A program made the translations under genes and the position numbers. Source: an uncultured bacterium (GTDB taxonomy: Bacteria; Babelota; Babeliae; Babelales; Vermiphilaceae). Taken from it: a stretch of 64,000 nucleotides of DNA. Within the stretch, counting starts at the first letter, position 1. Every line of letters begins with the position of its first letter. Positions 13,649-56,396 of this stretch are shown here, one piece after another. The DNA lies in assembly GCA_963695335.1 (NCBI GenBank), contig OY968764.1:384001-448000 (forward strand). Direction: 5' to 3'. The notes under the pieces are model-generated. The model was not told the origin of the DNA. It saw only the letters and a program-made list of their open reading frames with translations, and ran no database searches.

Positions 13649-14443
13649 ATGAATATGAAAAAAAAATTACTGATTGTTACAGCAGCAATTATAACACCGG
13701 TCATTTTTGTTGGGCTGAGAAGAAATTCAGCTCCTCTTTTTTCTGTTGAAAAATATCAATGTGTTCAAGATGCAGCTCTTTCTGATGATTACTTTTCTTC
13801 TATTAATAATGCGCTCGCTGATTTGTGTGATAAACATTGTGCAGCGCATGTTATTATTGATCAATTGAAGCAGCAATTTCCTGTGATTAATAAAATAACT
13901 ATTGCGTACAGACCTACAGCTACCCACGTTACATTATCGGTACATGAACCTGTGTGTTGTTTGAATAACTCTATTATTCTCACAACACAAAAAGAGTTGT
14001 TTCCTAAGCATGTTTTTGCTGAGGATGCACTTACTGATATTCTGAATATTACGTGTCATTTGCCATGCGATGCTTCTTCTACCGCTCAAACCCTTCGATA
14101 CACCCCTACGGGGCACTCCCAGACTTCGCACAAGGCTTCGTCGGGCACGGCAGGGCGAGCGGATGTAAGTAGTTTGGTTACAAATTTATTGCAAAAATTA
14201 CCTTGTAACATGAGCGAAAGTTATAACATTGAGCTCATGGCAGAGCACTGTGTGCGTTTTACAGATAAACAACAGCCACAATTTGTTATCGTCTCATCTC
14301 TTGCTCAAGAAAAATTGGCGCAGTTATGTACTCAATGTAAAGAAGTTAAACGCACTATTACTGAAAAAAATGGATTTGATAAAGGAATTAAGTGGGTAGC
14401 GGATACGCGATTTGCTCATTATATTGTTGCTTATAAAGCCTAA
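13649..14443 (+). CDS. ftsQ: Divergent FtsQ-like cell-division protein with in-frame repeat insertion
   Basis: Directly upstream of ftsA-ftsZ; N-terminal TM; POTRA-like FPVINKITIAYRP..HVTLSVHEP; DTRF near C-terminus (cf. DLRF). Confidence 0.6.
   Translation: MNMKKKLLIVTAAIITPVIFVGLRRNSAPLFSVEKYQCVQDAALSDDYFSSINNALADLCDKHCAAHVIIDQLKQQFPVINKITIAYRPTATHVTLSVHEPVCCLNNSIILTTQKELFPKHVFAEDALTDILNITCHLPCDASSTAQTLRYTPTGHSQTSHKASSGTAGRADVSSLVTNLLQKLPCNMSESYNIELMAEHCVRFTDKQQPQFVIVSSLAQEKLAQLCTQCKEVKRTITEKNGFDKGIKWVADTRFAHYIVAYKA
14082..14163. repeat. Family A element with nested family B element, in frame in ftsQ
   Basis: Matches the 20166-20213 copy apart from a 1-nt indel and a 33-nt insert at 14119-14151. 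Confidence 0.85.
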
Positions 14444-14457
14444 AAAAGGGGGATATT

Positions 14458-15690
14458 ATGGCACGACTTATTAAAGATCAAATCATCGCATCGATTGATA
14501 TCGGGACAACTAAAATTTGTGTTTTAATAGCACGAAAAATTGGAGATCAATTGGAAATTATTGGAATTGGTAAATCTCCATCGCATGGTTTAAAAAAAGG
14601 AGTGGTTGTTGATGTTGCAAAAACAATTAATTCAATAAACCTTGCAGTAAAAGAAGCAGAAATGATGGCAGGTATTCCAATAGAAGGTGCGTATATCGGA
14701 ATTTCTGGTGGGCATGTGAGCGCTGTCAATTCAGAGGGTGTGGTGCCCATAAAACATGGACAAATTAAACAAGCTGATGTTGATATGGTGCTTGAAGCTG
14801 CAAAGGCAATTGCAATTCCAGAAGGACGGCAGATTTTACACATTTTACCGCAATATTTTACGATTAATGGCATTGATCGCGTACAAGATCCGATTGGTAT
14901 GCATGGAGTGCGTCTTGAAGTGCAAGCTCATATTATTATGGGATCGGTTTCATCGGTACAAAATTTAGTAAATTGTTGCCAAAGTGCTGGTGTAAACGTT
15001 AATGATATTATATTAGAACAACTTGCATCTGCTGATGCCGTGCTGAGTGAAGATGAGCGTGAATTGGGTGTTGGTGTGATTGATATTGGTGGTGGTACAT
15101 CAGATGTGGCGTTTTATAAAAATGGTTCTGTGCGACACACTATGGTTTTGCCGGTGGCCGGTAATCACGTGACCAATGATATAGCGATCGGGTTACGGAT
15201 TATGAAAAGTGAAGCAGAGAGAATAAAAAAACGTTACGGCTTTGCAATAGGTAATCTGGTGGAAACGGAAGAATTGTTAGAAGTAGAATTGATGCAAGGC
15301 GAAGATTTACAGGTGGTGCGATTATCGGATCTTGTTCTGATTATTGAATCACGTATGCGTGAGTTATTTACGCTCGTAAATGAAGATATTAAGAGAAATC
15401 ATTTAGAGCAGTTTATGACGAATGGGATTGTGTTGACAGGTGGTGGTGCATTGCTTACTGGTGCACGAGAATTAGCCGAAGAAATTTTTGATTGCCCAGT
15501 GCGTATTGGAAAACCACGTGTGTTATTTGATTTAGTAGAAACATTACAAAGTCCATTGTATGCAACAGGGTATGGGTTATTGGTTTATGTGATGCAGAAT
15601 GAAAAAAGAATTAAAATGCATTTGGCAGAGGAGCCATTGACGCGACGTGTTTTTGAACGAATGAAATCTTGGGTTTCGGACTTTTTTTAA
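14458..15690 (+). CDS. ftsA: Cell division protein FtsA
   Basis: IDIGTTKI, GLKKGVVVD, DIGGGTSD, VLTGGGA. Confidence 0.97.
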   Translation: MARLIKDQIIASIDIGTTKICVLIARKIGDQLEIIGIGKSPSHGLKKGVVVDVAKTINSINLAVKEAEMMAGIPIEGAYIGISGGHVSAVNSEGVVPIKHGQIKQADVDMVLEAAKAIAIPEGRQILHILPQYFTINGIDRVQDPIGMHGVRLEVQAHIIMGSVSSVQNLVNCCQSAGVNVNDIILEQLASADAVLSEDERELGVGVIDIGGGTSDVAFYKNGSVRHTMVLPVAGNHVTNDIAIGLRIMKSEAERIKKRYGFAIGNLVETEELLEVELMQGEDLQVVRLSDLVLIIESRMRELFTLVNEDIKRNHLEQFMTNGIVLTGGGALLTGARELAEEIFDCPVRIGKPRVLFDLVETLQSPLYATGYGLLVYVMQNEKRIKMHLAEEPLTRRVFERMKSWVSDFF

Positions 15691-15745
15691 GAATCCTAAT
15701 ATAAAATAAATATAGGTTAGTACGTTTAAAAAAAAGGAGAACACG

Positions 15746-17074
15746 ATGATAGATTTTGAACAAGAAGCGTTGCATCGTCAGAAATCAATGGTTTCAATTA
15801 AAGTGATTGGTGTTGGTGGCGCCGGGGGGAATGCTGTTAACAGCATCATAGAATCAGGCTGTCAGGGAATTGGATTTATTGTTGCAAATACAGATGCGCA
15901 AGCTTTGGAGTTTTCAAAAGCGCAACACAAAATTCAAATCGGTGTTAAGTCCACAAAAGGGTTAGGGGCGGGGGCGAATCCAGAAACTGGAAAACGTGCT
16001 GCAGAAGAAGACCTTGATAAAGTGATGGATGCTCTTGATGGAGCAGACATCGTTTTTGTTGTTGCAGGAATGGGTGGTGGAACTGGATCAGGTGCAACAC
16101 CAGTCATTGCCAAAGCATTACGTGATAAAGGCGTTTTATCAATAGCAATAGTCATTCGACCATTTATGATAGAAGGTAAGCGCCGTGCAGCAACAGCAGA
16201 AGAAGCAATTCAAAAACTGAAACAAGATGTGGATGCATTGATTATTGTACCAAATGAAAAGTTGCTCGAAGTTGTTGATGAGCAAGTTTCTATGAAAGAT
16301 GCATTTGCAATGATCAATGATGGTATTTTAAGCCAATCAGTGCGCGGATTATCTGATATTATTACACGTCCAGGGCACATCAATGTTGATTACGCTGATA
16401 TTCGCACCATTATGAAAGATCGTGGTCTTGCTGTTATGGGAACTGGTAAAGCATCAGGAAAAGGGCGTGCGCACAGTGCTGCTGTCAAAGCAATATCATC
16501 TCCATTGTTAGAAAACATGAGTGTTGTTGGTGCACGTGGCGTGCTTTGCAATATTACCGGTGGTAAAGATTTGGGTCTTCGTGAAATTAGTGAAGCTGCA
16601 TCTGTGGTATATGAACAAGCTCATGAAGATGCAAATATTATCATCGGTTCGGTCATTGATGAAAATTTAAAAGATGAAGTTATTGTAACAATTATTGCAA
16701 CTGACTTTGAAAGACAAGATGCGCAACATGTACAAGAAGTAAAAGAAGAACCTGTGATTGAATTTGTTGCACAACACGAAGAAGTTGCGCATGTTTGCCT
16801 GTCCGCCGTAGCCTCGGCGAAGGAGGATGCTGCGCCGGTGATAGAAGAACCAATTATTGAACCTCTTCCATTGCAAATGGATATGGACCTGTCCGCCCCT
16901 TCGACAGAGCTCAGGATAAACTCCACCTTGGCGAAGGAGGAGGCAAAAGAAGAAGATATGCAAGATTTTATGAAAAAAAGTCATGCAGATTTTTTTGAAC
17001 AAGCCGACAACACATTTGGCGGTGCAGTAGATTCCAAAGACTTGGATGTACCGACGTTTATGCGTCAAAAATAG
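15746..17074 (+). CDS. ftsZ: Cell division protein FtsZ
   Basis: GVGGAGGNAVN, AGMGGGTGSG, C-terminal LDVPTFMR. Confidence 0.98.
   Translation: MIDFEQEALHRQKSMVSIKVIGVGGAGGNAVNSIIESGCQGIGFIVANTDAQALEFSKAQHKIQIGVKSTKGLGAGANPETGKRAAEEDLDKVMDALDGADIVFVVAGMGGGTGSGATPVIAKALRDKGVLSIAIVIRPFMIEGKRRAATAEEAIQKLKQDVDALIIVPNEKLLEVVDEQVSMKDAFAMINDGILSQSVRGLSDIITRPGHINVDYADIRTIMKDRGLAVMGTGKASGKGRAHSAAVKAISSPLLENMSVVGARGVLCNITGGKDLGLREISEAASVVYEQAHEDANIIIGSVIDENLKDEVIVTIIATDFERQDAQHVQEVKEEPVIEFVAQHEEVAHVCLSAVASAKEDAAPVIEEPIIEPLPLQMDMDLSAPSTELRINSTLAKEEAKEEDMQDFMKKSHADFFEQADNTFGGAVDSKDLDVPTFMRQK
16798..16827. repeat. Family B element in the FtsZ linker (LSAVASAKED)
   Basis: cctgtccgccgtagcctcggcgaaggagga. 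Confidence 0.85.
16888..16941. repeat. Family B element with nested family A element in the FtsZ linker
   Basis: cctgtccgcc[ccttcgacagagctcaggataaactcca]ccttggcgaaggagga. Confidence 0.85.
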
Positions 17075-17083
17075 AAGTGTGGA

Positions 17084-17122
17084 AAAAATAGCGCTTACAA
17101 TTTTTTAGTAAGCGCTATTTTT
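17084..17122. terminator. Bidirectional terminator
   Basis: aaaaatagcgcttac...gtaagcgctattttt. Confidence 0.7.
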
Positions 17123-17162
17123 GAATGTCTTAGAGATAATTATTGAAATATTTTTTATCAAG

Positions 17163-17453
17163 TTATTCATATATTGCGGCATGAATTTCTTGTATAGTAT
17201 ATGGTCGATTTCCATAAAGTATTTGTTTACATGCTTTCAGTTGTGCTTGTGTTTCTTTTATACTTTCTAAAGAATTGTGTTTTGGATCTAAATAAGCACC
17301 TTCCGTATATCTGATAGCTTCCTTAAGTTCGTTTTTGTCTTCCTGACTTAAGTAAGGATTTTCTCTTCTTTCCATTGCAGTCACTTGAATTGATGCAAAC
17401 GACGTTATTGTCAGGACTATGCCTGTAATGAGTAAGTTTTTTGTACTTTTCAT
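17163..17453 (-). CDS. Small secreted protein, MKSxKNLL family (copy 3)
   Basis: Near-identical to 17879-18169. Confidence 0.85.
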   Translation of the reverse strand: MKSTKNLLITGIVLTITSFASIQVTAMERRENPYLSQEDKNELKEAIRYTEGAYLDPKHNSLESIKETQAQLKACKQILYGNRPYTIQEIHAAIYE

Positions 17454-17463
17454 GAAAATTCCT

Positions 17464-17805
17464 TTAAATACTTGGGTAAATTATATTTGATATTTCATTA
17501 TCGGTATAAGCTCTGTTGCCATAATATATTTCTTTTATGCGTTCAACGCGTTGTTTTTCTGATTGTATTTTTTGATTAAACACTACTTTGTTTCGTAAAG
17601 ATTCTGAAGCTGCTCCTTGCCCTTGGCTGAATAGTTGTATTCCTTGTGCTGCAGCTGCGACAGCGAGTTCAAGATCATGTTTTTGCTTATTGCTTAGGTA
17701 AGGATTTACCGATTTATTCAGTTCCATTGCAGATATTTGAACCGATGCAAATAACGTGATTGCAAGAGCTACGCCTGTAATAAGTAAGTTTTTTGTATTT
17801 TTCAT
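17464..17805 (-). CDS. Small secreted protein, MKSxKNLL family (copy 4)
   Basis: Start moved to MKNTKNLL at 17805 with AAGGAG RBS; VNPYLS, YYGNRAY. Confidence 0.85.
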   Translation of the reverse strand: MKNTKNLLITGVALAITLFASVQISAMELNKSVNPYLSNKQKHDLELAVAAAAQGIQLFSQGQGAASESLRNKVVFNQKIQSEKQRVERIKEIYYGNRAYTDNEISNIIYPSI

Positions 17806-17878
17806 AAAAACACTCCTTTTTTTAACAAGTGTTATTTTTAATGCCTTAGAGATAATTATTGAAATATTTTTTATCAAG

Positions 17879-18169
17879 TTATTCATATATTGCGGCATGA
17901 ATCTCTTGTATAGTATATGGTCGATTTCCATAAAGTATTTGTTTACATGCTTTAAGTTGTGCTTGTGTTTCTTTTATACTTTCTAAAGAATTGTGTTTTG
18001 GATCTAAATAAGCACCTTCCGTATATCTGATAGCTTCCTTAAGTTCGTTTTTGTTTTCCTGACTTAAGTAAGGATTTTCTCTTCTTGCCATTGCAGTTAC
18101 CTGAACTGACGAAAATAATGTGATTGCCAGGGCTATGCCTGTAATAAGTAAGTTTTTTGTGTTTTTCAT
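17879..18169 (-). CDS. Small secreted protein, MKSxKNLL family (copy 5)
   Basis: ENPYLS, LYGNRPY; AAGGAG RBS. Confidence 0.85.
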   Translation of the reverse strand: MKNTKNLLITGIALAITLFSSVQVTAMARRENPYLSQENKNELKEAIRYTEGAYLDPKHNSLESIKETQAQLKACKQILYGNRPYTIQEIHAAIYE

Positions 18170-18503
18170 GAAACACTCCTTTTTTTGAGATTAATACGAT
18201 ATCTATCACTTATAACTTTACCTTATCTGAATTCAGTTTGTAAATAATTTTAATAAAGTAGCGTTAAAAAGGGTGTTTTCTTGTTCCTTATGACTTTTTT
18301 GGTTTGTAATGATTGTAAAATTGCGAATCCAATTCGCAAATTTACAAAAAGGTGCCAAAATGAGCTACTAGAGTATAAAACTGAATTTGTAAACGACTGT
18401 TTTGGGGTGGAAGGCGGCGGGGGAGTTGATTAAGGAATTGGAAAATAAGTGATTTTAATAAAATAGCGCTTACTGAAAGTTGTAAGCGCTATTGATTTTT
18501 CAG

Positions 18504-18803
18504 TTATTGATAAAAAGCGGCATACCGTACGTCAGCTTCGTCATAAGCTTCATTGCCGTAATACATTTTTTCAAAACGTTTAAGTTTTTGTTGTGCTTCT
18601 TTGAGTTCTTCGGGTGTGTAAACAAATCCGGATTTTGGATCTAGCTGTTGTGTTTGGGCCCCAATATGTCGTTCAAGTGCTCTTTTTGCACCCGGAGTTA
18701 AATTAGGATTTACTCTTGATGCCATTGCAGTCACTTGAACTGATGCAAACAATGCAGTCGCCAGGACTATGCCTGTAATGAGTAAGTTTTTGGTGTTTTT
18801 CAT
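18504..18803 (-). CDS. Small secreted protein, MKSxKNLL family (copy 6)
   Basis: VNPNLT, YYGNEAY; upstream region duplicated with copy 5. Confidence 0.85.
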   Translation of the reverse strand: MKNTKNLLITGIVLATALFASVQVTAMASRVNPNLTPGAKRALERHIGAQTQQLDPKSGFVYTPEELKEAQQKLKRFEKMYYGNEAYDEADVRYAAFYQ

Positions 18804-19038
18804 GAAACACTCCTTTTTTTGAGAATAATACGATATCTATCACTTATCAGTTTACCCCCACCAATTTCAAGTTGTCAATAATGTGATGGTAAAAAGAGCT
18901 CATAAAATGGGAATGTTTGTTGCAGATGGGTGTATTTTATTCTATTTGTCATGATCAAATTAGGGGCTTTTTACGGCGATTAAGGGTTGTGGTATGCTTA
19001 CTTATGTAAGAACTTGGCCTTATACGAAAGAGATTATT

Positions 19039-20160: not shown

Positions 20161-20165
20161 TTATG

Positions 20166-20300
20166 CGCTCAAACCCTTCGATACACCCCTAACGGGGCAC
20201 TCAGGGCGAGCGGAGTAAGAAGTTACAAGTATTTTATTTTTCTCTTCCGCTCATCCTGAGTGTTTTTTGTCTTCAAAAAATGTATCGAAGGATCGGAGCG
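20166..20300. repeat. Inverted pair of family A elements (REPIN-like)
   Basis: cccttcgataca..cactcagggcgagcgga facing tccgctcatcctgagtg..tgtatcgaagga. Confidence 0.85.
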
Positions 20301-20381
20301 AGCGGGGGGATGGATGCAGATGATTAGTGGAGGACCGAATGATCGGTCCTCTTTTTTTTGATAATACTTTGCTTCTTTCAT

Positions 20382-22845: not shown

Positions 22846-22876
22846 CCTGCCCGCCGTAGCTTTATGCGAAGGAGGG
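22846..22876. repeat. Family B element supplying the GNAT gene stop codon
   Basis: cctgcccgccgtagctttatgcgaaggaggg. Confidence 0.8.
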
Positions 22877-23428: not shown

Positions 23429-23455
23429 ATTTTTTTATTTGTTTTGTGTTCGTTT

Positions 23456-23535
23456 CCTTCGACAGGCTCAGGACGAACGGGGAAAATAATTCTTTTTTAT
23501 TCCGTTCGTGTTGAGCTTGTCGAAACATACGAACG
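23456..23535. repeat. Inverted pair of family A elements overlapping the truA 3' end
   Basis: ccttcgacaggctcaggacgaacgg ... ccgttcgtgttgagcttgtcgaa. Confidence 0.85.
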
Positions 23536-26526: not shown

Positions 26527-26598
26527 GCGCTCGTCCTGAGCCTGTCGAAGGATATCTTTGAGCGCGCTTTAATCCTTCAACAAGTTCAGGATGAGCGC
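26527..26598. repeat. Inverted pair of family A elements
   Basis: gcgctcgtcctgagcctgtcgaagga ... tccttcaacaagttcaggatgagcgc. Confidence 0.85.
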
Positions 26599-30725: not shown

Positions 30726-31733
30726 TTATTTAACTGGTACAATATATTTTTTCATTTCTGCTGGAATCACAATATTCAACGCTTGCGCAGTCTGCATGTT
30801 CACAAATATAGCAGCCCTGTCCTTCGACCTGTCCGAAAAAGCCTTGGCGAAGTAGGAACCTAAAATAGGCAATTCATACGGTTTTTTGTGATCAATTAAA
30901 AGTTGCATAGCAATATGTGCTGCATCAACACCTGCTTGATGATAATCAACACCACGAGCCATTAATGGGCCGTATTGCACAAGCATATTATCACTTACAA
31001 TAAAAGGTTTTTGTGCTTTGCGTGCTAAGTCAGCAATCAGTGCAACGCTGTTTGCGATGGTGTTATCAGTTGGCGCAAGTAATGCGTCTACTTTACGCAA
31101 TGCGCTGATCGTTGCAGGTTCGATATCTGATTCAGATGCAACGCCGATTGTTACTGGAGTATAACCTGCACGTTCTAATTCTGTAACCATTATTTTTGAT
31201 GTAGCAACTGCATTGGTTTCAGCGGTGTTAAAAATAATTCCAACAGTTTGTATGTTGGGCAGCAGTTGTTGCATTGCTTCTATTTCAGCACGAACATTAA
31301 TCATATCACTTACGCCACAAATGTTTGATGCATCAAAACTGATCCCCAACTCTGGTGCAATAGTCACAGCTGCAATAATAATTGGTTTTGTGTTTTCAAC
31401 AGATGCCATTGCTTGCGCTGCAGGAGTTGCAATTGCATAGATTGCATCAATATCTTGGCGTGCATGGAACTGTTGTGCGATGGCATAGAGGGTATTAATA
31501 GAACCTTCACCGTTGCGGATGGTAAAACCAATATCGGCACCCAATTTTTTTTGTAGGCTGGTGATAAAACCATCTCGGGCAGCATCAAGTGCTGGGTGAG
31601 AAGCGGTTTGGATGATGCCGATAGTCCATGTATAGTTTTTTTCAGAACGATTGACTGTTTTTTTGATAATAATGGCACTGAACACAAAGGTTGCGATAAG
31701 GCAAATAGTTATGATTGCGCGATTGTTTTCCAC
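30726..31733 (-). CDS. ABC transporter substrate-binding protein with in-frame repeat insertion
   Basis: HPALDAARDGF, IATPAAQ, GVSD, PTDNT, GVDY. Confidence 0.88.
   Translation of the reverse strand: MENNRAIITICLIATFVFSAIIIKKTVNRSEKNYTWTIGIIQTASHPALDAARDGFITSLQKKLGADIGFTIRNGEGSINTLYAIAQQFHARQDIDAIYAIATPAAQAMASVENTKPIIIAAVTIAPELGISFDASNICGVSDMINVRAEIEAMQQLLPNIQTVGIIFNTAETNAVATSKIMVTELERAGYTPVTIGVASESDIEPATISALRKVDALLAPTDNTIANSVALIADLARKAQKPFIVSDNMLVQYGPLMARGVDYHQAGVDAAHIAMQLLIDHKKPYELPILGSYFAKAFSDRSKDRAAIFVNMQTAQALNIVIPAEMKKYIVPVK
30815..30857. repeat. Family B element(s) in frame in the ABC binding protein
   Basis: ccctgtccttcga-cctgtccgaaaaagccttggcgaagtagga (SYFAKAFSDRSKDR). Confidence 0.8.
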
Positions 31734-33434: not shown

Positions 33435-33571
33435 TCCGCTCGTCTAACCCCATCTTCAGTTTCTTTCGATGGGGACCCCAATTCAGCCCCATTTCCATTA
33501 TATTCCAATGGGGACCCCAATTGGAGTAAGACGTAAATTGGGAATAAAAAATTGGGGCAAAAGGATGCGGA
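33435..33571. repeat. Family C twin hairpin nested in another C element, inside an A-like remnant
   Basis: tccgctcgtc[taaccccatc..ggggacccc..[agccccat..ggggacccc..]..attgggg]caaaaggatgcgga. Confidence 0.8.
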
Positions 33572-33611
33572 TTAATAAAAATATTAAATTAAAAAAATCT
33601 TTTTTATGTTG

Positions 33612-33666
33612 CACCCTTCGATACATTTTACTACGTTTCACTACGTAAAACACTCAGGGCGAGCGG
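33612..33666. repeat. Family A element
   Basis: cacccttcgataca..cactcagggcgagcgg. Confidence 0.85.
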
Positions 33667-36821: not shown

Positions 36822-39614
36822 ATGAATTTTGATCCTAAAAAAACATTATTTCTTATCGACGGCTCTTCATTTTTATACCGTGCATACTACGGCCTTAAGC
36901 CATTGCATTCACCATCAGGTGTGGCAGTGCAAGCGGTGTTTAGTTTTTGCCGCATGATGAAAAAACTTATTGATACATATAAACCAGAATATGTTGCGCT
37001 CGTATGGGATAGTAAAGGTAAAACAACACGTCATACAATTTTTCCAGAATACAAAGCAACGCGTCAAGCACCACCAAGTGATATATTTGAGCAAAAAGAG
37101 TTAATTATTCAGTTTGCTCAATCTATTGGTATGCCGCAAGTACAGCAAACTGGAATTGAAGCTGATGATTTGATGTTTTCTTTAGCAAAAGACTGGGTCA
37201 GCACATCAGCTGCCCTTCGACAAGCTTCCGACTTCGCCGAGGCTTCTTCGGACGTACAGGGCGAGCGGGAGGCGGATAAGACAGTTGTGTTTGTAACCCT
37301 TGATAAAGATATGGGTCAAGCATTAACACTTGGGCAACAAATATATTTACTCGATGCATTTAAAGATCAGTTCACTGACGCTGCAGCAATGCAAATAAAA
37401 ATGGAAATTCCAGTAGAAAAAATGCCATTTTATTTTGCACTGCTTGGTGATGCTTCAGATAATATTCCGGGTGTAAAAGGGATTGGCAAAAAAACAGCGG
37501 TAGATTTGGTCAATCAGTTTGATTCACTCGAAGATATGTATGATAGACTTAATGAAATAAAAAAGGCTGGTGTAAAAACTGCATTATTAGAACAAAGAGA
37601 TAATGCGTTTTTGAGTTTCCAGCTTTTTCTGTTGCAATACACAGCACTGAACATGAGTTCAGAACAATTACTGTTTAATGCACAGAATTGGAAGCATGCA
37701 CGTCCACTGTTTGAAGAGCTTGGTTTTAAATCATTGCTCGTTACAGCGGGGGAAACAAAAGAAGAACGTGCAAAAGATGTGCAAGCTAAAATTGAATATT
37801 GGAAGAAATACAATTTTATTAATGTGACTACCGCGCAGCAATTGCATGATATGTGTGAGTATCTTAAAAAAGAAGGCGCATTTGCGCTCGACACAGAAAC
37901 TACTGGTTTATCGCCATTAGAAGTTGATTTAGTGGGAATTTCATTTTCATGTGATAAAGGAGTTGCATATTACGTTCCATGTGGTCATAAAACGGGCGAA
38001 CAACAACTTTCTTGTGATGAAATTATTGCAATATTGCGACCAATTTTAGAAAGTTCACAGTATAAAAAATATTTGCACAACGCAAAGTACGATATGTTAG
38101 TGCTCAGCAGTCATGGTATTGAATTAGCTGGTGTTGCACTTGATACACTTGTGGGCGCAAACTTAATTATTAAAGAATGGCAGAGCGCTGGTTTAAAAAA
38201 ACTGTCGCATGCGTTTTTTAATGAAGAGATGTTAACGTTTGAAGATGTAGTAAAGACGGGAAAATACAAAGACTTCTCTTTTGTACCAGTTGAACTAGCT
38301 GGGCTCTATTCATGCGCGGATTCGTATCAAACATATCGCCTTGTTGCGATCATCAAAGAAGCGTTTGAACAAGATAAAAAATTGTATGATTTGTATACAA
38401 ACATTGAACACCCATTGATTGAAGTTTTGTATGAGATGGAAAAAGAGGGTGTCAATTTAGATACGCATTTATTGCGTGAGCTGAATATAAAAGTTACGGC
38501 AGATTTGGCGGTGATTGATGCAGAAATTGCGCATGTTGTGGGTAAAGAAAAAATTAATCTTAATTCGCCAGCGCAAATGGAACATCTTTTGTTTGATGTG
38601 CTGCAGTTGCCACCACAAAAAAAGAGCCCAACGGGTAAATTTTCAACTGATGCAGAAGTGCTTAAAGCGTTAGCAACAATGCACCCGATTCCTGCATTGA
38701 TTATTAAATATCGTGAGTTGGCAAAACTGAAAAATACTTATATCGATGCCTTACCAACATACGTAAATAAAAAAACAGATCGTGTGCATACAACATTCAG
38801 TCAAACATCCGTTGCAACAGGGCGGCTTGCAAGCTCCAATCCTAATTTACAAAATATTCCTGCAGATGCATCTGGATACGGTATAGAAGTACGTGCAGCA
38901 TTCAAAGCGGGTGCAGGGCGTTTATTTATTTCTGCTGACTATTCGCAAATTGAGTTGCGCGTGCTTGCGTATTTGTCACAAGACAAAAATTTAATGAATG
39001 CATTTTTACGTGGGCATGATATTCACACCGAAACTGCTGCGCGTTTATTTGATGTTGAGTTGGCAGCGGTAACGCATGAACAAAGACAACTTGGTAAACG
39101 TATTAATTTTAGTGTTTTGTATGGAATGACACCGTACGGATTATCAAAAGATTTGGGTATTCCGTTCAAGCAAGCAAAGCAATATATTGAGCGTTATTTT
39201 CAGCAATATCCTGATGTTTCCACATGGATGGAATCTATTATAGAATTTGCGAAAAAACATGGATACGTGGAAACGTATTGGGGACGCAGACGGTATATTC
39301 CTGCTATTTATGAAAAAAATCGCACCATGTATGAAGAAGCATGCCGTGTAGCAATTAATACAGTTGCACAAGGAACTGCAGCAGAGATTATGAAATTGGG
39401 TATGTTGGCCGTCCGCAAAGAGTTGCAAACGCGTTTTAAAGATAGTTGCATTGTTTTACAAATTCATGATGAATTGATTGTGTCTGCGCCTGAGCAAGAT
39501 GCATTAGCAGTTGAGATGTTGGTTAAACGAGTGTTGGAATCTGTCGTAAAGTGGGATATCCCTCTTGATGTGAGCACGCGCAGTGGTGCTGATTGGAAAG
39601 AGATTACAAAATAA
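36822..39614 (+). CDS. polA: DNA polymerase I with in-frame repeat insertion
   Basis: IDGSSFLYRAY, GDASDNIPGV, DTETTGL, TGRLASSNPNLQNIP, ADYSQIELR, QIHDEL. Confidence 0.98.
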   Translation: MNFDPKKTLFLIDGSSFLYRAYYGLKPLHSPSGVAVQAVFSFCRMMKKLIDTYKPEYVALVWDSKGKTTRHTIFPEYKATRQAPPSDIFEQKELIIQFAQSIGMPQVQQTGIEADDLMFSLAKDWVSTSAALRQASDFAEASSDVQGEREADKTVVFVTLDKDMGQALTLGQQIYLLDAFKDQFTDAAAMQIKMEIPVEKMPFYFALLGDASDNIPGVKGIGKKTAVDLVNQFDSLEDMYDRLNEIKKAGVKTALLEQRDNAFLSFQLFLLQYTALNMSSEQLLFNAQNWKHARPLFEELGFKSLLVTAGETKEERAKDVQAKIEYWKKYNFINVTTAQQLHDMCEYLKKEGAFALDTETTGLSPLEVDLVGISFSCDKGVAYYVPCGHKTGEQQLSCDEIIAILRPILESSQYKKYLHNAKYDMLVLSSHGIELAGVALDTLVGANLIIKEWQSAGLKKLSHAFFNEEMLTFEDVVKTGKYKDFSFVPVELAGLYSCADSYQTYRLVAIIKEAFEQDKKLYDLYTNIEHPLIEVLYEMEKEGVNLDTHLLRELNIKVTADLAVIDAEIAHVVGKEKINLNSPAQMEHLLFDVLQLPPQKKSPTGKFSTDAEVLKALATMHPIPALIIKYRELAKLKNTYIDALPTYVNKKTDRVHTTFSQTSVATGRLASSNPNLQNIPADASGYGIEVRAAFKAGAGRLFISADYSQIELRVLAYLSQDKNLMNAFLRGHDIHTETAARLFDVELAAVTHEQRQLGKRINFSVLYGMTPYGLSKDLGIPFKQAKQYIERYFQQYPDVSTWMESIIEFAKKHGYVETYWGRRRYIPAIYEKNRTMYEEACRVAINTVAQGTAAEIMKLGMLAVRKELQTRFKDSCIVLQIHDELIVSAPEQDALAVEMLVKRVLESVVKWDIPLDVSTRSGADWKEITK
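37213..37268. repeat. Family A element with nested 30-nt family B element, in frame in polA
   Basis: cccttcgacaagct[tccgacttcgccgaggcttcttcggacgta]cagggcgagcgg. Confidence 0.88.
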
Positions 39615-42360: not shown

Positions 42361-42948
42361 TTACATCACTGATTGGCCGATGTATTCTTGCGATTGGCCA
42401 ACTTCCTGACCAGCAGGCGCTGCAGGAGCTGATTGGTTACCTTTAACTTGTGCACTGATTTCTTTAACTTTATCAGCCAATTTTTGTCCCAAAAGAACTA
42501 AGTAAGCTTTGTTTGCCATTGCTTTATACAGTTTGGCTCCATATTCACTCATTTTGAGGTTAGGGAATAAGTCTGATAAGTTATTATCTACTTTTATATT
42601 TTTGAATGAACCGTTTTTATTTACAATTTCATCATATTGCATAGATACAATAGCATCCATATTTGTTGTAAAATCGGTGCTCATAATAAGTTTTTCAAGA
42701 ACCGGTTTGATAGCATTGTATAAAGTTGAAGAAGCCTTTTCTGCCATTTTTATATGAATACGTTCTGCATTCCATGCACGTTTAATAGCATTCATTTGTG
42801 TATTAATGTGATTGAGTTGGACTGTAAGAGTAGCAATATCAGCTGCCTGCCCTTCGAAGCCTTGGCGAAGTAGGGTGGGAGCCATTGCCATTATTGTTTG
42901 AGCTGTGGCAAGCAGCGTTACTATGCAAAAAGATAATTTTTTAATCAT
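42361..42948 (-). CDS. Hypothetical secreted protein with in-frame repeat insertion
   Basis: Signal peptide then LLRQGFEGQA encoded by a family B element. Confidence 0.75.
   Translation of the reverse strand: MIKKLSFCIVTLLATAQTIMAMAPTLLRQGFEGQAADIATLTVQLNHINTQMNAIKRAWNAERIHIKMAEKASSTLYNAIKPVLEKLIMSTDFTTNMDAIVSMQYDEIVNKNGSFKNIKVDNNLSDLFPNLKMSEYGAKLYKAMANKAYLVLLGQKLADKVKEISAQVKGNQSAPAAPAGQEVGQSQEYIGQSVM
42846..42875. repeat. Family B element in frame
   Basis: cctgcccttcgaagccttggcgaagtaggg. Confidence 0.85.
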
Positions 42949-44117: not shown

Positions 44118-44119
44118 GT

Positions 44120-44215: not shown

Positions 44216-44267
44216 ACCCTACGTCCTTCGACAGGCTCAGGATGAGCGGAAGATAGCGTAGTAGGGT
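44216..44267. repeat. Family A element nested in a B-like element
   Basis: accctacg[tccttcgacaggctcaggatgagcgga]..gcgtagtagggt. Confidence 0.8.
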
Positions 44268-45330: not shown

Positions 45331-45363
45331 CCTGGCCTTCGTAGCTCGCTAGAGCGTAGTAGG
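45331..45363. repeat. Family B element
   Basis: cctggccttcgtagctcgctagagcgtagtagg. Confidence 0.8.
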
Positions 45364-45484
45364 CATACGTAACATTAATTTACATATCTCATATTAGTAC
45401 ATCATTTTTTTTAATCTTATTTTCACAAATTCAAGGAATATTACATGACGTACAACGTCAGAGTATCTTTTACAGGAGGTCTGG

Positions 45485-47206
45485 ATGAAAACTCGTGATA
45501 TTAAAACAGCTGATTCTGCGCAAATAGAAGAGTCGCAAACAGCACAAACCGTGGAATCTTCTCAGGCTACTCCACAACCAACTCGTACACGTGCTCCAAG
45601 AGCACCTAAAAAAGATAAAGTGGTAGAAACAGCTACACATACGGTGTCTGAAGAGCCACAAAAGTCAGTAACATCCGACTATGCTTCGTCCTCCGCTAAA
45701 AGCTACGGAGAACACAGCAAGGCTTCCTCTGTTGCTGAAGCTATGAAGGACAGGTCGTCGGACAGGTCAGAATCAACAAGGCCTGCAGCGCAAGAGCATT
45801 ATTTTGAGCGCGATGCAATGCCGCAAGATCGTAGAAATGGAAATGGGCAGTATGTCCAACCTCGTGAAGTACGCGAAGAATATAATCGTCCAACGCAACA
45901 ATATTCTCAGCAAGGTTCATACGATCGTTCAGGATACACACGTCGACCATTAGAAGATTTATCATTGTCAGAACTCGTTCAATATGCTCGCCGTTATGGT
46001 ATCATGGGCGCGGCAATTACTAAAAAAGATGAGTTGCTCAAAAAAGTTCGTTACGCTGAAGAACATCCAAATGCTGAAATGGCAGTCGAGGGGGTTTTAG
46101 AAAAATTACCTGATGGATTTGGATTCTTGCGTTCAGCATTATATGATTACGTTTCAGGGCCAGATGATATTTATGTTTCTCCATCACAAATTAGACGTTT
46201 TGGTTTGCGTACGGGAGACACTATCAAGGGTGAAATAAGAAAACCAAAAGAAGGTGAAAAATATTTTGCGCTATTAAAAGTATCGCAAGTAAATTACGCT
46301 GAACCTCTTTCTATGATTGATAGACCTCATTTTGACAGCTTGAGTCCGCAGCATCCTATTTCAAAATTCAATCTTGAATTTGATCCAACAGCACTTTCTA
46401 CCCGTATTCTTGATGTATTCACACCGATTGGTAAAGGTCAGCGTGGTTTGATTGTAGCTCCTCCTAAAGTTGGTAAAACGTTGTTGCTTAAAGAAATTGC
46501 GCGAGCAATTATTAGCAATCATCCTGAAGCACATCTTATGGTACTTTGCGTGGATGAACGTCCTGAAGAAGTTGCTGATATGCGCCGTACGCTTAAAGGC
46601 ACCACAGCAGAAGTTATCAGTTCTACATTTGATGAACCTGCAGAGCGTCATGTTCAAGTGGCGGAAATTGTTTTGGAAAAAGCAAAACGTTTAGTTGAAT
46701 GTAACAAAGATGTGGTTATTATTCTTGATTCTATCACTCGTCTTGCGCGTGCATATAATACCGTTGCTCCTGCATCAGGAAAAGTACTGACTGGTGGTAT
46801 TGATGCATACGCACTGCAACATCCAAAACGATTTTTTGGTGCAGCACGTGCCACTGAAGAAGCTGGTTCATTAACTATTTTAGCTTCTGCATTGGTAGAA
46901 ACAGGTTCGCGTATGGATGAAGTTATTTTTGAAGAGTTTAAAGGTACGGGTAACATGGAAATGAATATGACGCGTAAACTTTCACACCGTCGTATTTTCC
47001 CAGCCTTTGATCTGTTAACTTCTGGAACTCGTCGTGATGACTTATTACTTTCTGAAGAAGAACTTAATAAAGTTTGGATTCTGCAGAAATTACTTTCTAC
47101 GATGAATACTATAGAAGGTATGGAATTCTTGATTGATAAAATGAAGAAGACCAAAACCAATGCTGAATTTTTTGAATCGATCAATAAACGAACCGCTGAA
47201 ATGTAA
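45485..47206 (+). CDS. rho: Transcription termination factor Rho with long N-terminal extension
   Basis: [55 protein letters not shown]. Confidence 0.98.
45674..45766. repeat. Family B element carrying two nested B-like elements, in frame in rho
   Basis: tccgactatgct[..gctaaaagctacggagaacacag]caaggct[tcctctgttgctgaagctatgaaggacagg]tcgtcggacagg; 93 nt. Confidence 0.75.
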
Positions 47207-47260: not shown

Positions 47261-47405
47261 ATGAAATCCCCAAAAGCACACTCCTATGTTTTCATTTTGA
47301 AATATAAACACATTGTTTTTTGATAAAAAAATAAATTTTGATATTGTTATAAATATGATAAGAATGTGTTGTTTGGGTTATCAAAGGTGATAGGTGGGGG
47401 ATTTC

Positions 47406-50033: not shown

Positions 50034-50883
50034 GGTTCTGTTGAGTTTTCATCGTAACCATATGCAAGTTCCCACAAAAGAAAGAAAAGATAAAAAATTT
50101 CGTGCCGATTTATCAAAACGAGCAAACACTCTTCTAAAGTGTTTTATCTTTGAAAACAAGCATTCAATCGCATGTCTCTCTTTATATAGATGTTCATCAT
50201 ATTGATATTGTTCTTTACGATTGGATCTTGGAGGAATAACGGGAACACAATTTTTTTCTATTAATTTCGAACGTAATTCAGTGGAATCATATCCTTTATC
50301 CGCTATTACATATGATTCAGAAATATCTTTTAATAAAATATCAGCCTGAGTAATATCATTACGCTGACCAGGAGTAATAACAAATCTTAAAGGATTGCCT
50401 AAAGCATCTACTGTTGCATGTATCTTACTTGTAAAACCACCTTTACTTCTTCCCAGTCCTTCATTTTTAAATTGATCATATCCAGCAGAACAGGCATGTG
50501 CGCGGACTATCGTGGCATCAATCATTACATATTCCATATCGGGATCCTCTGCACAAAAACTGAGTAATTTTTCCCAAATATGTTTTTTTGACCAAGCATT
50601 AAATCTGCTGAACACACTATTCCAATTTCCATATTTTTCCGGCAACTCTCTCCATTGTGCTCCTGTTCTTGCCATCCAAAATGTCCCTTCTATAAACTTT
50701 TTACAGTCCTTTTCTTCTTTTATATAAATGTTTTTTTGCTGTTTTAAAAAATTAAAAATTTTGCTCCAGGCCATTTCGCTGATATACTCTTTTTTCATGA
50801 TAGCACCGTTTTAGTGATTTGGTTTTTGCTTTTTCGGTGTTATCATACTTCAAAACTTATCTTTTCAAAAACTCAACAGAACC
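50034..50883 (-). mobile_element. IS5-family insertion sequence, 850 bp
   Basis: 16-bp perfect terminal IRs GGTTCTGTTGAGTTTT; TA duplicated on both sides. Confidence 0.93.
50049..50798 (-). CDS. IS5-family DDE transposase (single ORF)
   Basis: RTGAQWRELP, IDATIVRAH, GRSKGG, ADKGYD, YKERHAIE. Confidence 0.95.
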   Translation of the reverse strand: MKKEYISEMAWSKIFNFLKQQKNIYIKEEKDCKKFIEGTFWMARTGAQWRELPEKYGNWNSVFSRFNAWSKKHIWEKLLSFCAEDPDMEYVMIDATIVRAHACSAGYDQFKNEGLGRSKGGFTSKIHATVDALGNPLRFVITPGQRNDITQADILLKDISESYVIADKGYDSTELRSKLIEKNCVPVIPPRSNRKEQYQYDEHLYKERHAIECLFSKIKHFRRVFARFDKSARNFLSFLSFVGTCIWLR

Positions 50884-52484
50884 TAAAGATTCTTCATAAG
50901 CTTTTTGTAATTCTTGCTGATGTTGAATATTCTTTTCTTCGTTTTGTTCTGCTGCTTTGTGTGCTAATTGTTGTTCTTGTTTTTGCCGTAAAGCTTGTAT
51001 TTCACGTTTTTCTTGTTTTCGTTTTTTAGCCTCTTCTTCTAATTCCCTTCGAGCTATTGTTAGTTCTTTTTGAGTCTTTTCTTCTAATTCTTTTTGAGTT
51101 TTTTGTTGCCGTTCTTCCTGGAGAGCTTCATCTCTCAGTTTTGGCTCTCCCATTTTTTTAATTTCTTGAGTGACTTGTTGTTTGTTTTGCCGTTGTTCTT
51201 TTTCAAATGCTATACCTGTTTGGGGGTTGTAGGAGGTGAATGCGCCATTTTTGCCAACAACAACAAGTTCATGTGGAGATTTAAAGTAGAAAGCATTATC
51301 AACGGTGAATGTTGTCAGAGAAGATGAAAGTTTTTCCAAATTAACGAGTGAATAGATTATATTTTGTCCGGTAAAAAATTCACGCGGTGCACCAAGTTCT
51401 ACTAAACGGGTCTCTTTATCATCAGGGCTAAAGCAGTAGGTAACAACATTTGTGGCTATGTTATCGAGTTTTTTTCCGGTTGTTGTATTAATAAGATACA
51501 TTGCATTTTTTTCTTTGAAAACAACAAGGTAATTTTTTAATGGGCTCAGGATATATGCCATAACATGTGTTTCTGTTATTTTTTTCCCATGAGCTAGCAT
51601 TATAGAGAGTTCTTTGGTTGCATCATAGTATGTAATTTTTTTTGAAACAGTGAGGTCGTTATTGATTGTTTCAGTAATATTGGGAGTTGATGAGAACCAT
51701 CTGTTTCTTTGTACGGTAATTTGCCGTAGGGTGTCATTATCATATTGTACAACAAGATTATCTTCGCTTGAGTAATCGATTGTTTGTACATTTTCAAATG
51801 TTTTAAGAACTGATTTTGACGAAATATCAAACAGTTCGTACCGAGTAGTATCATTCTGAGGTCTTGCGCCAAGAGGCAACGCTCCCTCGTTAGTATGAGT
51901 TGTATCTAAATGTCTTCTGGCAATGATGAGTGTTGTTTCATCTGGGCTAAATTCATAGGTGATTAAATCACCATCAAAAGAGCCAACTTCCGTGAGACTT
52001 TGTAGATCTATTATTTTTGTAACATGAGTGATAGTCGGTATTTTTTCCCCTATAGGACGTTTTAACAGACTGCTCAGTAAGTACGTGATTGTTTTTTCAG
52101 AGAGACCTTGTGATGGAGATGCTGTGTTTGTGATTACTTGCACCATGAGATATTTTTTTTGAGGACTAAAATTATAGAAGCTCACTTGTGTTGGAGATAT
52201 GGGAGTTGTTTTGAGTGTGTCGTTTTCAACAAAGTTAAGGATCATTCTTTTTTGGTCGGGTTCATAAAAAATGACTGGAATTTGTTGTGCTTCTTCTGAT
52301 TTTAGTTCTGTTTGTTTATGTATTTGTGGTGTTTTCATCTGTTGGAGATACTTTGCCGTGTACTGTTTGCCCTGTTGTGTCATGCGCATACACAAGAGAT
52401 TTGTACTCACGAGTGCACATACGAGTGTTATTTTTATACATTTCATATTATTCCCCTATTTTTTTTAATATATTTTTACATTTT

Positions 52485-54206: not shown

Positions 54207-54332
54207 CGCAGCTCCCCCTTTTTAATAATTATGATTTTAAAATAATATTTTTCATTTGAAATTGTAAAGGGTTGGTTGAGAATTGGTTTGTTTCCGTAAA
54301 AGGATTTTTTTGGTATTGTATGGTTCTCTCCT

Positions 54333-54469
54333 GCGCTCGTCCTGAGCCTGTTTAACCCCATCTTCAGTTCCTTCAGACGGGGACCCCGGTTTGGAGTGAA
54401 ACGAAAACTGGGGCAAAAGGATATCTTTGAGCGCTCGAGGATACCCTTCAACAAGTTCAGGGCGAGCGC
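54333..54469. repeat. Family A inverted pair, first copy split by a family C twin hairpin
   Basis: gcgctcgtcctgagcctgt[ttaacccc..ggggacccc..actgggg]caaaaggatatctttgagcgc; compare intact 26527. Confidence 0.88.
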
Positions 54470-54553
54470 GGGGAATATATTGATGATTGGGTCATTTAAA
54501 TAATTTGTGCTATATAACATATGTAACTAAAATTTTAAAGAAAGGACTCTTAT

Positions 54554-55354
54554 ATGAATATTGCAAAACGCATGGCGTTTATTACGTGTAGCTTAATGAT
54601 GAGTGTGATGATGCACGGAATGGAATTAGAAAAATCGAATGAACCATTTATTTCTCAAGATCGTATTTTTGTGTGGACTGGTTATAATCCTCAATATCAT
54701 GTAGTAACCGTGCTTGGTAACTATTCTGAACATGATATTTTACAAAAAAATGATCAACCTCACAAAATTTATAGAGCTCAGTTGGTCATTCAAAAAAATA
54801 AAGAAGGTGAAGAGGGTAAGAAGTATTTTGTAAAGACTACTCAAGAATATATTTGCAATGGAACAGAAGCTAAGTTTAAAAATCTTACAAAATTAGAAAG
54901 AATTGAAGTGCCAACTTTTTGGTCTCAAGAACAGTGTGATGGAATACGGTATAAATTGAATAGCTGTTTAGATAGAAAAAAGGCAGTTTTAGCGATTGAT
55001 AATGATGGTAATGAGTATTTTATTACGCATGTATGGGATGAAAATCGTGATAATTCAAAAAAGGTACGTGTATACAATACCGAAAAACATCGAGCTGAGT
55101 TGATTCCTGTATTAAACAAAAAGAAGATGTTGTTAGAAATACAAAATTTAAAACAAGACGTTGCAGAATTTAAAAAGATTGCAGTACAGATACAAATAGC
55201 AAAAGATAGGTTCAATGCTGAGAAATTGCCAGAGAGACTTAATCGTAGTCGTAATAATGACTATTTTGGACTTGTAATGAGTTGTGCTACTTACGGAGGT
55301 TTAATTGTACTTGGAATTCTTCTTGCAGCGCTTATTCCCCAATATCAAGGTTGA
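54554..55354 (+). CDS. Hypothetical secreted protein with C-terminal TM helix
   Basis: Signal ..MHG|MELEK; hydrophobic tail. Confidence 0.75.
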   Translation: MNIAKRMAFITCSLMMSVMMHGMELEKSNEPFISQDRIFVWTGYNPQYHVVTVLGNYSEHDILQKNDQPHKIYRAQLVIQKNKEGEEGKKYFVKTTQEYICNGTEAKFKNLTKLERIEVPTFWSQEQCDGIRYKLNSCLDRKKAVLAIDNDGNEYFITHVWDENRDNSKKVRVYNTEKHRAELIPVLNKKKMLLEIQNLKQDVAEFKKIAVQIQIAKDRFNAEKLPERLNRSRNNDYFGLVMSCATYGGLIVLGILLAALIPQYQG

Positions 55355-56396
55355 AATCTGAAAAACGGCCCTGTTGCGCTTTATAATTACCGACAAAAGC
55401 AATCATAGCAGCATTATCCGTGCAATATTTGCGTGAAGGGTGGAAGAATGGAATGTTGTGTGTAGTGGAGAATGTTTTAAGGCGTTCAGTGATATATGCA
55501 TTACATGCAACACCACCAACAAACGTAATCGCTTGTACGTGCGGATGCGCTGCTAACGCCAATTCTAATTTTTGTTCAAAAATATCTGCCATGCACACAA
55601 GAAGTGAGCTGGCAACTTCTTTTATAAATTGTTCATCATCAGAACGTAGGAATTTTTTTGCGGAAAGATCGTATGCATTTTGTTTTACAAGATCATAAAG
55701 CACTGCAGTTTTAAGTCCGGAAAAACTGAAATCTAATGTTTTTTGTTTGCTGCGTGGGTAGTGGAAAAAATCTTGGAAATTAACTTCACGCGCAAGTTTT
55801 TCAATCACTGGTCCGCCTGGATATGGTAAATTCATCAGTTTTGCAATTTTATCAAACGCTTCACCTGCCGCATCATCTTGCGTTTCTCCAAGCACTTCAT
55901 AATCACCAAAATCTTTTATTAAATAAAGCGATGTATGTCCACCCGATGCGGTGAGGCATAGATGAGGAAATGGAACATTGTGTTCTATTGAAGCAGAAAA
56001 TGCATGCCCTTCTAAGTGGTTAATTCCTATGAGTTTCTTTTTCTCCCTACTACGCTCTCCGAGCTTCGAAGGGCAGGTCTTGGCGTACGCAATTGCTTTT
56101 GCAAAACAGATACCAACAAGTAATGATCCAGGAAGGCCTGGTTTGTTGGTAACGGCAATCACATCAATATCATCAAGTGACATGTTTGCTTGTTCAAGTG
56201 CTGCTGCAACTATGGGATTAATTTTTTCCAGTTGTGAGCGTGATGCAAGTTCAGGGATAACACCACCAAATTTTTTGTGTAGTTCAATTTGTGAGTATAA
56301 AGCGCTGGAAAGTAAACCTTGTGTGCTGTGGTATACTGCAGCTGCTGTTTCATCACATGAAGTTTCTATGCCGAGGGTGATAAATGGGTGTTTCAT
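55332..56396 (-). CDS. tsaD: tRNA N6-adenosine threonylcarbamoyltransferase with in-frame repeat insertion
   Basis: LGIETSCDET, NHLEGH, SGGHT, DDAAGEAFDK, FSFSGLKT, TDNAAMIA; start set at MKHPF. Confidence 0.97.
   Translation of the reverse strand: MKHPFITLGIETSCDETAAAVYHSTQGLLSSALYSQIELHKKFGGVIPELASRSQLEKINPIVAAALEQANMSLDDIDVIAVTNKPGLPGSLLVGICFAKAIAYAKTCPSKLGERSREKKKLIGINHLEGHAFSASIEHNVPFPHLCLTASGGHTSLYLIKDFGDYEVLGETQDDAAGEAFDKIAKLMNLPYPGGPVIEKLAREVNFQDFFHYPRSKQKTLDFSFSGLKTAVLYDLVKQNAYDLSAKKFLRSDDEQFIKEVASSLLVCMADIFEQKLELALAAHPHVQAITFVGGVACNAYITERLKTFSTTHNIPFFHPSRKYCTDNAAMIAFVGNYKAQQGRFSDFNLDIGE
56045..56077. repeat. Family B element in frame in tsaD (TCPSKLGERSR)
   Basis: Reverse complement cctgcccttcgaagctcggagagcgtagtaggg. 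Confidence 0.88.

Follow-up and report, generated by a model that had tools for sequence, protein, structure and literature searches.

In-frame hairpin inserts in core genes of a likely Babelota bacterium, and two small GIY-YIG nucleases that may spread them

In-frame inserts in the genes of the window

The window, a 64,000-nt stretch of DNA (G000:C1:384001–448000; 36% GC) taken from a 1.37-Mb single-contig genome of 35.7% GC, referred to here as G000, contains core genes in which short, GC-rich hairpin elements lie within the coding sequence without disrupting the reading frame. Among these genes, ftsA, ftsZ, polA, rho and tsaD were named above the cut-off by NCBIfam, and an ABC substrate-binding protein (30726–31733(−)) was named by Pfam. 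The tmRNA gene was the sole Rfam match on the window. The open reading frame (ORF) at 13649–14443(+) had no Pfam or NCBIfam match; the name ftsQ, given to it in an earlier reading of the window (the initial annotation), is supported by its position before ftsA-ftsZ and by Atlas neighbours with POTRA_1/FtsQ_DivIB_C, and we refer to it as ftsQ-like. The closest named PolA homologues and several of the closest nuclease loci (see below) carry the labels Candidatus Babeliales or Dependentiae, and by these labels the host organism is likely a member of the Babelota.

The initial annotation had reported elements of this kind at eight coding positions in seven genes. All seven peptides that it quoted translate in the genes and frames to which it had assigned them, and the eighth insert is found at 14082–14162. 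A ninth insert, the first in the list below, had been overlooked. The inserts, assigned to the hairpin families A and B that are described in the next section, are the following:

6082..6111 (−): ninth insert, in-frame A unit of 30 nt in ORF 5956–7305(+)
14082..14162 (−): ftsQ-like insert, collapsed B dimer with a nested A unit (14119–14150) in gene 13649–14443(+); 81 nt, about 29 extra residues relative to empty orthologues
16798..16827 (+): FtsZ insert 1, single A unit of 30 nt (leader CCTG and 26-nt hairpin) in the C-terminal linker, peptide LSAVASAKED
16888..16941 (+): FtsZ insert 2, A shell holding a reversed B piece, 54 nt, in the C-terminal linker
30816..30857 (+): insert in the ABC substrate-binding protein, partial A-in-A nest of 42 nt near the C-terminus of 30726–31733(−)
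37214..37268 (−): PolA insert, B unit with a nested 30-nt A unit (37227–37256), 55(–57) nt, in the loop that follows the EADD helix in the 5′ nuclease domain
42846..42875 (+): secreted-protein insert, single A unit of 30 nt just after the hydrophobic N-terminus of ORF 42361–42948(−), peptide LLRQGFEGQA
45674..45766 (−): Rho insert, three nested/tandem A units, 93 nt, in Rho (45485–47206(+)), within its variable N-terminal extension
56045..56077 (−): tsaD insert, A unit of 33 nt with a 7-nt loop in tsaD, whose likely start is 56396; it falls in a coil between helix 82–98 and strand 114–119 of the protein model

The eight inserts known from the initial annotation have a GC content of 54–70%, compared with 36% for the window, and would add about 10–33 amino acids to loops. 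Alignment with orthologues, which the initial annotation had proposed as a check, showed that element-free orthologues are shorter at each of these eight sites. The site is empty in 10 of 10 relatives for PolA, in 7 of 7 for the ABC substrate-binding protein (a net difference of 11 aa), in 5 of 7 for TsaD and in 6 of 7 for the FtsQ-like protein, in which the seventh relative holds a different element at the same site. The FtsZ homologue P0128 lacks both inserts, with clean gaps of 9 and 18 aa, and the Rho homologue P0132 shows a clean gap of 33 aa. For the secreted protein, the site is empty in the related genome G008, and a second relative, G005, shows a probable decayed remnant. At the ninth site G005 is empty and has an insert of its own further on.

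Two hairpin families

De novo word counts in G000 yielded two hairpin families, A and B. The initial annotation had described one family of non-autonomous elements; their lineage-specific, non-autonomous character stood, and the single family gave way to two and to composites of both. Family A consists of a 4-nt leader with the consensus C(C/G/T)TG followed by a 26-nt imperfect hairpin, the commonest unit being 30 nt long. Family B consists of a 7-nt leader (motif CGYTCR) and a 21-nt hairpin with an invariant tandem GA/GA mismatch and a 5-nt loop. The GA mismatches presumably form sheared pairs.

With the inner core as the only anchor for copies of family A, the outer five pairs were Watson–Crick in 55, 85, 89, 96 and 88% of 110 distinct copies, each above the maximum of 500 shuffles, and the sixth position paired at the level of chance. 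The variable pairs of family B were complementary in 97–99% of 356 distinct copies, compared with 50–77% in shuffles. In both families covariation is thus above all shuffles, which ignore kinship among copies, and it ends at the foot of the stem. Thermodynamic folding of single units was no better than that of shuffled sequences in 11 of 11 stretches (z from −1.8 to +0.7), so it is covariation on which the hairpin structure rests. Taken singly, the units of the elements that the initial annotation had called palindromic are imperfect hairpins.

The two families nest in one another. A units are found within A units at CGW^AGC and within B units at CCTG^ARC, so that A enters both kinds of hairpin at a fixed point, before AGC/AAC; B also nests in A. 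In the window, the inserts of PolA, the FtsQ-like protein, the ABC substrate-binding protein and Rho and the second insert of FtsZ are composites of this type. A peptide nearly identical to the second FtsZ insert was found at an unrelated site of PolA in a homologue from another genome (P0170), which suggests that composites may move as units.

Partner GIY-YIG genes and cassettes

Besides UvrC, G000 encodes three small GIY-YIG proteins. One of the genes lies between inverted B arms, and the other two are located downstream of A hairpins, one of them behind tRNA-Arg. The relatives used for comparison were genus-level genomes, including G005 (searched in its fetched part) and G008, with 31 genomes compared for the presence of genes and repeats. 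Of the 30 GIY-YIG loci returned for the genus, five UvrC-like ones were excluded, and the remainder fell into two types. Slx1-like genes (∼80 aa), which often lie behind tRNA or tmRNA genes, have an A element ≤300 nt upstream in 8 of 8 cases and a downstream element in none. UPF0213-like genes (∼95 aa) have B upstream in 16 of 17 cases by pattern and in the 17th by arm alignment, and inverted B downstream in 16 of 17. The two groups separate at 100/100 in a tree of 17 loci, and their nearest solved structures are Slx1 (E 1e-7) and UPF0213 (E 4e-13), respectively. The nucleases are 80–98 aa long; PF01541 was matched above the cut-off in all four that were scanned, and NCBIfam gave them no name.

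The B cassettes are ∼400 bp long and occupy different loci in different genomes, with empty sites in both other genomes for four of the five cassettes compared. All 49 short B dimers from three genomes keep the central AGCGC-type motif at which the cassette arms end, as expected if these dimers are gene-deleted cassettes. A search for plasmids with the A cassette gave no match. Across the 31 genomes, family A and Slx1-like genes were both present in 14, the gene only in 2, the repeat only in 4 and neither in 11 (Fisher p 0.001); for family B and UPF0213-like genes the corresponding numbers were 10, 1, 7 and 13 (Fisher p 0.007), the genomes being kin and not independent in either test. G001, which is 95% complete, has neither the genes nor the repeats.

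Several further features of the B arms were observed. In L190, L196, L201 and L204 the left and right arms share nested inserts, with up to ∼100 nt near-identical, which suggests arm-to-arm copying, and in L193 and L211 the nuclease frame continues into the right arm before its stop codon. In G008 (G008:C1:230500–232000) a membrane-protein ORF lies between B arms, with a B nuclease cassette as its neighbour, where G000 and G005 both have an empty site; B arms may therefore carry cargo genes. A third hairpin motif (AACCCCATCTTCAG...GGGGACCCC type) with many copies in the genome is located in the loop of B arms, sometimes in tandem (33436–33520 and 54350–54420 in the window). A structured repeat of ∼250–270 nt is joined to B arms at G000:C1:116250–116790, 120030–120290 and 189740–190060, including one large inverted pair.

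Junctions and tRNA ends

An A hairpin starts exactly at the CCA end in 16 of the 35 tRNA/tmRNA genes of G000, in 12 of the 36 of G008 and in 7 of the 33 of G005. The old CCA is still present beside the leader in 24 of 29 tRNA copies, which indicates that the A unit entered after the discriminator base, ahead of CCA, and brought a new CCA with it. Among A units that end in TGG, the complement of CCA, 29 of 36 abut annotated tRNA ends. Three tRNA-type A hairpins without an ARAGORN call (G000:C1:163668, 499974 and 894801) may mark the ends of unannotated RNA genes or tRNA fragments.

A insertions often repeat the last 1–3 target bases at the far end (TGG at tRNAs). At junctions outside tRNA genes, the last base of the target and that of the element are identical in 59 of 108 cases, compared with 38 expected (p=5e-4), and the last two bases match in 31 (19 expected). 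Solo genic targets have G at position −1 in 56% of cases, compared with 17% of controls.

A proposed route of spread

Taken together, the sequence comparisons make it probable, although by no means assured, that the inserts are gene-less copies of two selfish hairpin families spread by two small GIY-YIG nucleases encoded elsewhere in G000. Each nuclease would bind its own hairpin as single-stranded DNA and nick the hairpin or the target; host repair might then copy the hairpin in via 1–3 nt of microhomology, by template switching or circle-like integration, and selection would likely keep the frame-preserving copies in tolerant loops and linkers. Host repair is invoked for the copying step because we know of no joining activity of a lone GIY-YIG domain, and this step is the weakest link of the proposed mechanism. 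Related activities have been described: SsnA, a GIY-YIG nuclease of a family related to the present ones, nicks single-stranded DNA beside its own NTS repeat (PMC11893778), and Slx1 is a branch-point nuclease (PMC6902002). A wider picture can be drawn that we hold to be possible rather than probable. In it, two unrelated GIY-YIG nucleases would mobilise ∼400-bp elements, among the smallest autonomous ones in bacteria, and the 30-nt hairpins would integrate in a minicircle-like manner via 1–3 nt of homology, restore tRNA CCA ends, stack, and keep adding modules of 10 residues to several per cent of the proteome.

A number of observations weigh against spread by the two nucleases. B repeats occur without the matching gene in seven assemblies and A repeats in four, and G023 has both genes and neither strict pattern. 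Among 43 distant Slx1-like loci (of 45, two having been dropped for short flanks), a strict upstream A hairpin in the cassette orientation was found in only 13 (0.05 expected); a tRNA or tmRNA gene lies within ∼700 nt in 26 of the 43. In the A cassette no arm lies downstream of the gene, and the proposed route gives no account of how this cassette itself would move. The SRM pattern, which marks the repeats of a described nuclease system (see below), had no matches in G000, the 12 largest contigs of G005 or G008, and the nucleases are not of the tested SRM type. Many junctions, including the first FtsZ site, show no direct repeat. A preference of solo insertions for hairpin-forming targets found no support (54 sites, p=0.17; 93 sites, no stem enrichment from +1 to +6), and since solo sites show no hairpin excess, the geometry of nested and tRNA sites, one base 5′ of a stem, does not apply generally. 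The copies show no consistent bias between replication strands, with 72 leading and 48 lagging in G000 and 56 and 53 in G008.

Some of these points would fit a different view, unlikely in our judgement but deserving real weight, that the nucleases cut or bind the hairpins without spreading them, being cargo or domesticated host factors, and that host recombination, gene conversion or another enzyme multiplies the hairpins. The persistence of the repeats in genomes where the gene was not found speaks for it, as do the near-identical cassette arms of L204 (69/73), whose common nested inserts show conversion between copies. In addition, PMC11893778 reports cutting and an effect on transformation, with a role of SsnA proposed in Neisseria transformation and mobility put forward only as a hypothesis. 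However, B cassettes lie at lineage-specific sites that are empty in relatives and number from zero to several per genome, each repeat family pairs with its own nuclease clade, and no other tested enzyme family tracks the repeats. On these grounds we prefer spread by the nucleases.

Genome-wide distribution, reading frames and sites within proteins

A genome-wide count of genic and intergenic copies, proposed in the initial annotation, gave 339 element clusters for G000, 260 for G008 and 85 for the part of G005 that was fetched, compared with 2, 3 and 4 in codon-shuffled copies; the repeat patterns miss some copies, including two of the nine inserts of the window. Coding DNA makes up 84% of G000, yet it contains fewer than one quarter of the clusters. 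Of the 82 clusters located inside 1144 crudely called ORFs, 22 were left out as probably upstream of the true start, 7 because they had no orthologue and 2 as C-terminal, and the remaining 51 are internal and in frame, in 39 genes, with orthologous sequence on both sides. A shorter element-free orthologue was found for 34 of these, element-bearing orthologues for 7, and no length gap for 10. Five more candidates for disrupted genes comprised three in-frame cases in genes missed by the caller, one unclear junction and one true break, which is the only frame break in total and affects a gene that is also broken elsewhere. This gene, at G000:C1:1141700–1144130, resembles PEP synthase by its motif; it is split into three pieces, and an A unit stands at one of the breaks.

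The initial annotation had suggested that only frame-preserving hits in tolerant regions survive. In addition to the 51 in-frame clusters and the single break, A copies of three genomes belong to loop classes with a length of 3n in 77 of 93 cases in genes, compared with 102 of 168 outside them (p=2.6e-4). In A-in-B composites with a 5-nt leader, one B base was lost in all 3 genic cases and in none of the 5 intergenic ones (p=0.018), in a count that was read by eye and left out the complex ftsQ case. Frame-keeping is thus partly selected and, because the commonest A unit is 30 nt long, partly built in. As the initial annotation had noted, different frames and strands are used: genic A copies use six frames (52/14/10/8/5/4 of 93). 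The top frame is antisense, with 52 copies compared with 20.5 expected among open frames, a preference that could be explained by peptide tolerance or by target preference.

In the residues flanking the inserts, P, K, Q, S and T are abundant, and C, G, Y and W are scarce. In TsaD the insert comes after the last conserved helix that precedes the HLEGH motif and ahead of the next strand, and when it was mapped onto a structure model, as had been proposed, it was a coil with a pLDDT of ∼53 (protein mean 87). Element-type peptides recur at such places. In TsaD, A- or B-type peptides occupy one loop in 13 of 123 homologues, the 13 carriers being dispersed across a clade of 95 tips, and a single insert was found elsewhere in the protein. 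In PolA they occur in 10 of 120 sequences, at four sites, and several relatives bear their own inserts in the FtsZ linker. The inserts extend loops and linkers that were already there, and close relatives differ in them, so the new protein loops suggested by the initial annotation are not borne out as functional ones.

The repeated hits on the same loops, and the favoured antisense frame, might be taken to mean that genic copies are kept because they are useful, either as interaction loops in FtsZ, PolA, TsaD and Rho or as mRNA hairpins that tune expression. This question is separate from that of spread, and we find a positive answer improbable. Where a site is shared, its peptides vary in family, frame, orientation and length, so tolerance fits better than function; most close relatives lack the inserts; copies are far denser between genes than within them; and the frame bias may stem from the preference for targets with G in front of the leader. 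The insert peptides would be translated, and they are probably tolerated passengers rather than adaptations.

Transposases and artefacts as alternative sources

The hairpins might also be moved in trans by a Y1 transposase of the IS200/IS605 type or by a RAYT through a peel-and-paste route, as for GTAG repetitive extragenic palindromes (REPs). IS200/IS605 elements have an unpaired leader at the hairpin foot and lack long target duplications, and family A resembles them in its unpaired 4-nt leader and in the lack of a long target duplication. Moreover, G000 contains three identical Y1 genes of the IS200 type (G000:C1:369218, 574578 and 1166633). However, these three copies possess ends of their own, with neither A nor B at their borders, Y1 genes are present in only 7 of 31 genomes and were not found in the repeat-rich one- or two-contig assemblies G006, G008 and G009, and their association with the two repeat families is not significant (p 0.19 and 0.41). 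This explanation is largely refuted, and we consider it very improbable. That the inserts are assembly or sequencing artefacts is next to impossible: 45 frameshift-like breaks in G000 relative to G005 proteins indicate that the assembly may have indel errors, but a separate record (P0001, 95% identical) shares the TsaD insert, identical FtsZ, ABC, secreted and FtsQ-like proteins are found in Logan assemblies (possibly from the same reads), and relatives bear their own copies at other sites.

Relation to known repeat systems

The initial annotation had drawn a parallel to Rickettsia palindromic elements (RPEs), which are ∼150 bp long, palindromic, encode a conserved peptide, and lie between genes as well as in frame inside genes (PMC10969869). 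The parallel holds for behaviour, as families A and B are likewise palindromic repeats found between genes and in frame in unrelated ORFs of a bacterium with a small genome. It does not extend to membership: compared by description only, RPEs have their length of ∼150 bp and their conserved peptide, whereas A and B elements are 30–99 nt long, use six frames, nest mutually and are tied to two GIY-YIG genes.

The Ssn/SRM system also consists of a small single-domain GIY-YIG gene flanked by its own hairpin repeat, which numbers hundreds of copies, and family B shares its repeat–gene–repeat layout. The present nucleases differ in that their nearest structures are Slx1 and UPF0213, and family A differs in that it lies only upstream of its gene and targets tRNA CCA ends. 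The term ‘in-frame’ is absent from the main text of PMC11893778, and empty sites of cassettes are shown here. In 12 of the 14 supplementary files of that paper, the only member of Babelota is Babela massiliensis, listed without SRM and ssnA.

GTAG and CGTC REPs are hairpins of 20–40 nt with an unpaired tag, often arranged as inverted dimers, with intragenic copies, DNA polymerase I included; no transposase was found for CGTC repeats (PMC3733652). A and B elements are similarly short hairpins with an unpaired leader, form inverted dimers and have intragenic copies, including DNA polymerase I. Unlike GTAG REPs, family A has no terminal GTAG (its leader is C(C/G/T)TG, and GTAG lies inside the stem), and no Y1/RAYT gene is flanked by A or B. 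CGTC REPs have the tag CGTC, an 8–9-bp stem, a 4–5-nt loop and a CCA tail, whereas family B has a CGYTCR leader, a 5-nt loop and a stem broken by the tandem GA; CGTC occurs only in some B variants, where it overlaps the stem. The two families were set apart from those of PMC3733652 by the descriptions in its text, and either may be identical with one of them. Similarity to MITEs (miniature transposable elements with inverted repeats) of DDE insertion sequences is limited to B dimers, which have terminal inverted repeats, lack coding capacity and derive from a longer, gene-bearing cassette. Single A units do not share this feature, being single hairpins with a direct repeat of at most 1–3 nt that is above chance and not universal, and the partner gene encodes only a GIY-YIG domain instead of a DDE transposase.

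In summary of these comparisons, A and B elements behave like the RPE and Ssn/SRM systems and lack the membership features that were tested (RPE size and peptide, SRM pattern, GTAG tag and RAYT link). No description of the two families, or of such repeats in Babelota, was found in the literature searched, which did not extend to subscription papers or the contents of figures. The spread of REP- or RPE-like hairpins that lack a transposase still awaits an explanation: PMC3733652 found no such enzyme for CGTC repeats, and PMC11893778 puts mobility forward only as a hypothesis. G000 supplies two enzyme–hairpin pairs, empty sites, exact unit lengths and junction rules, which makes the question testable with two short proteins and oligonucleotides of 30–40 nt. 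If the nucleases recognise hairpins with GA mismatches, they would add to the sequence-specific cutters of single-stranded DNA. The insertions also constitute a natural linker scan of TsaD, PolA, FtsZ, FtsQ and Rho, and they explain recurrent peptides (SFAKASED, LLRQGFEGQA) that can mislead annotation.

Intergenic copies and other features of the window

Copies between the genes of the window, and the tmRNA region, are as follows:

11476..11520 (+): B arm, intergenic
26527..26598: short B inverted dimer, intergenic, with the central AGCGC motif; gene-less form of the B cassette
44217..44266: B-in-A composite, intergenic
54333..54470: B dimer, intergenic, with a further hairpin in the left loop
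56422..56561: B dimer, intergenic, upstream of the likely tsaD start
near 20165–20310, 22846–22876, 23455–23525, 33436–33666, 45331–45364 and 59790–59820: further intergenic copies
60797..61161 (+): tmRNA gene, whose CCA end forms the first three bases of an A stem
61159..61410: four A hairpins behind tmRNA; the nuclease gene is absent here, and the same site in G005 holds A arms and an Slx1-like GIY-YIG gene (L198)

The 3′ end of tmRNA is repeated together with A hairpins ∼9.6 kb downstream (from 61159–64000 in the window on to G000:C1:454900). The genes between the two repeats mostly have no match in G005 and include a PhzF-like gene, a dioxygenase-like ORF and an IS copy. The bracketed region looks like an island inserted at tmRNA.

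Among the remaining genes, an IS5-like DDE transposase gene (50049–50798(−)) has several near-identical copies across G000, and a large protein of the ankyrin-repeat type (47394–49871(+)) matched several ankyrin models below the cut-off. Three paralogous ORFs of 420–455 aa at 1613–7305 have common C-terminal motifs; the one that was scanned, which holds the ninth insert, had no family match. Short paralogous ORFs arranged in tandem, whose leaders are near-identical and whose starts resemble signal peptides, are located at 17100–18900, 681–796 and 1146–1222.

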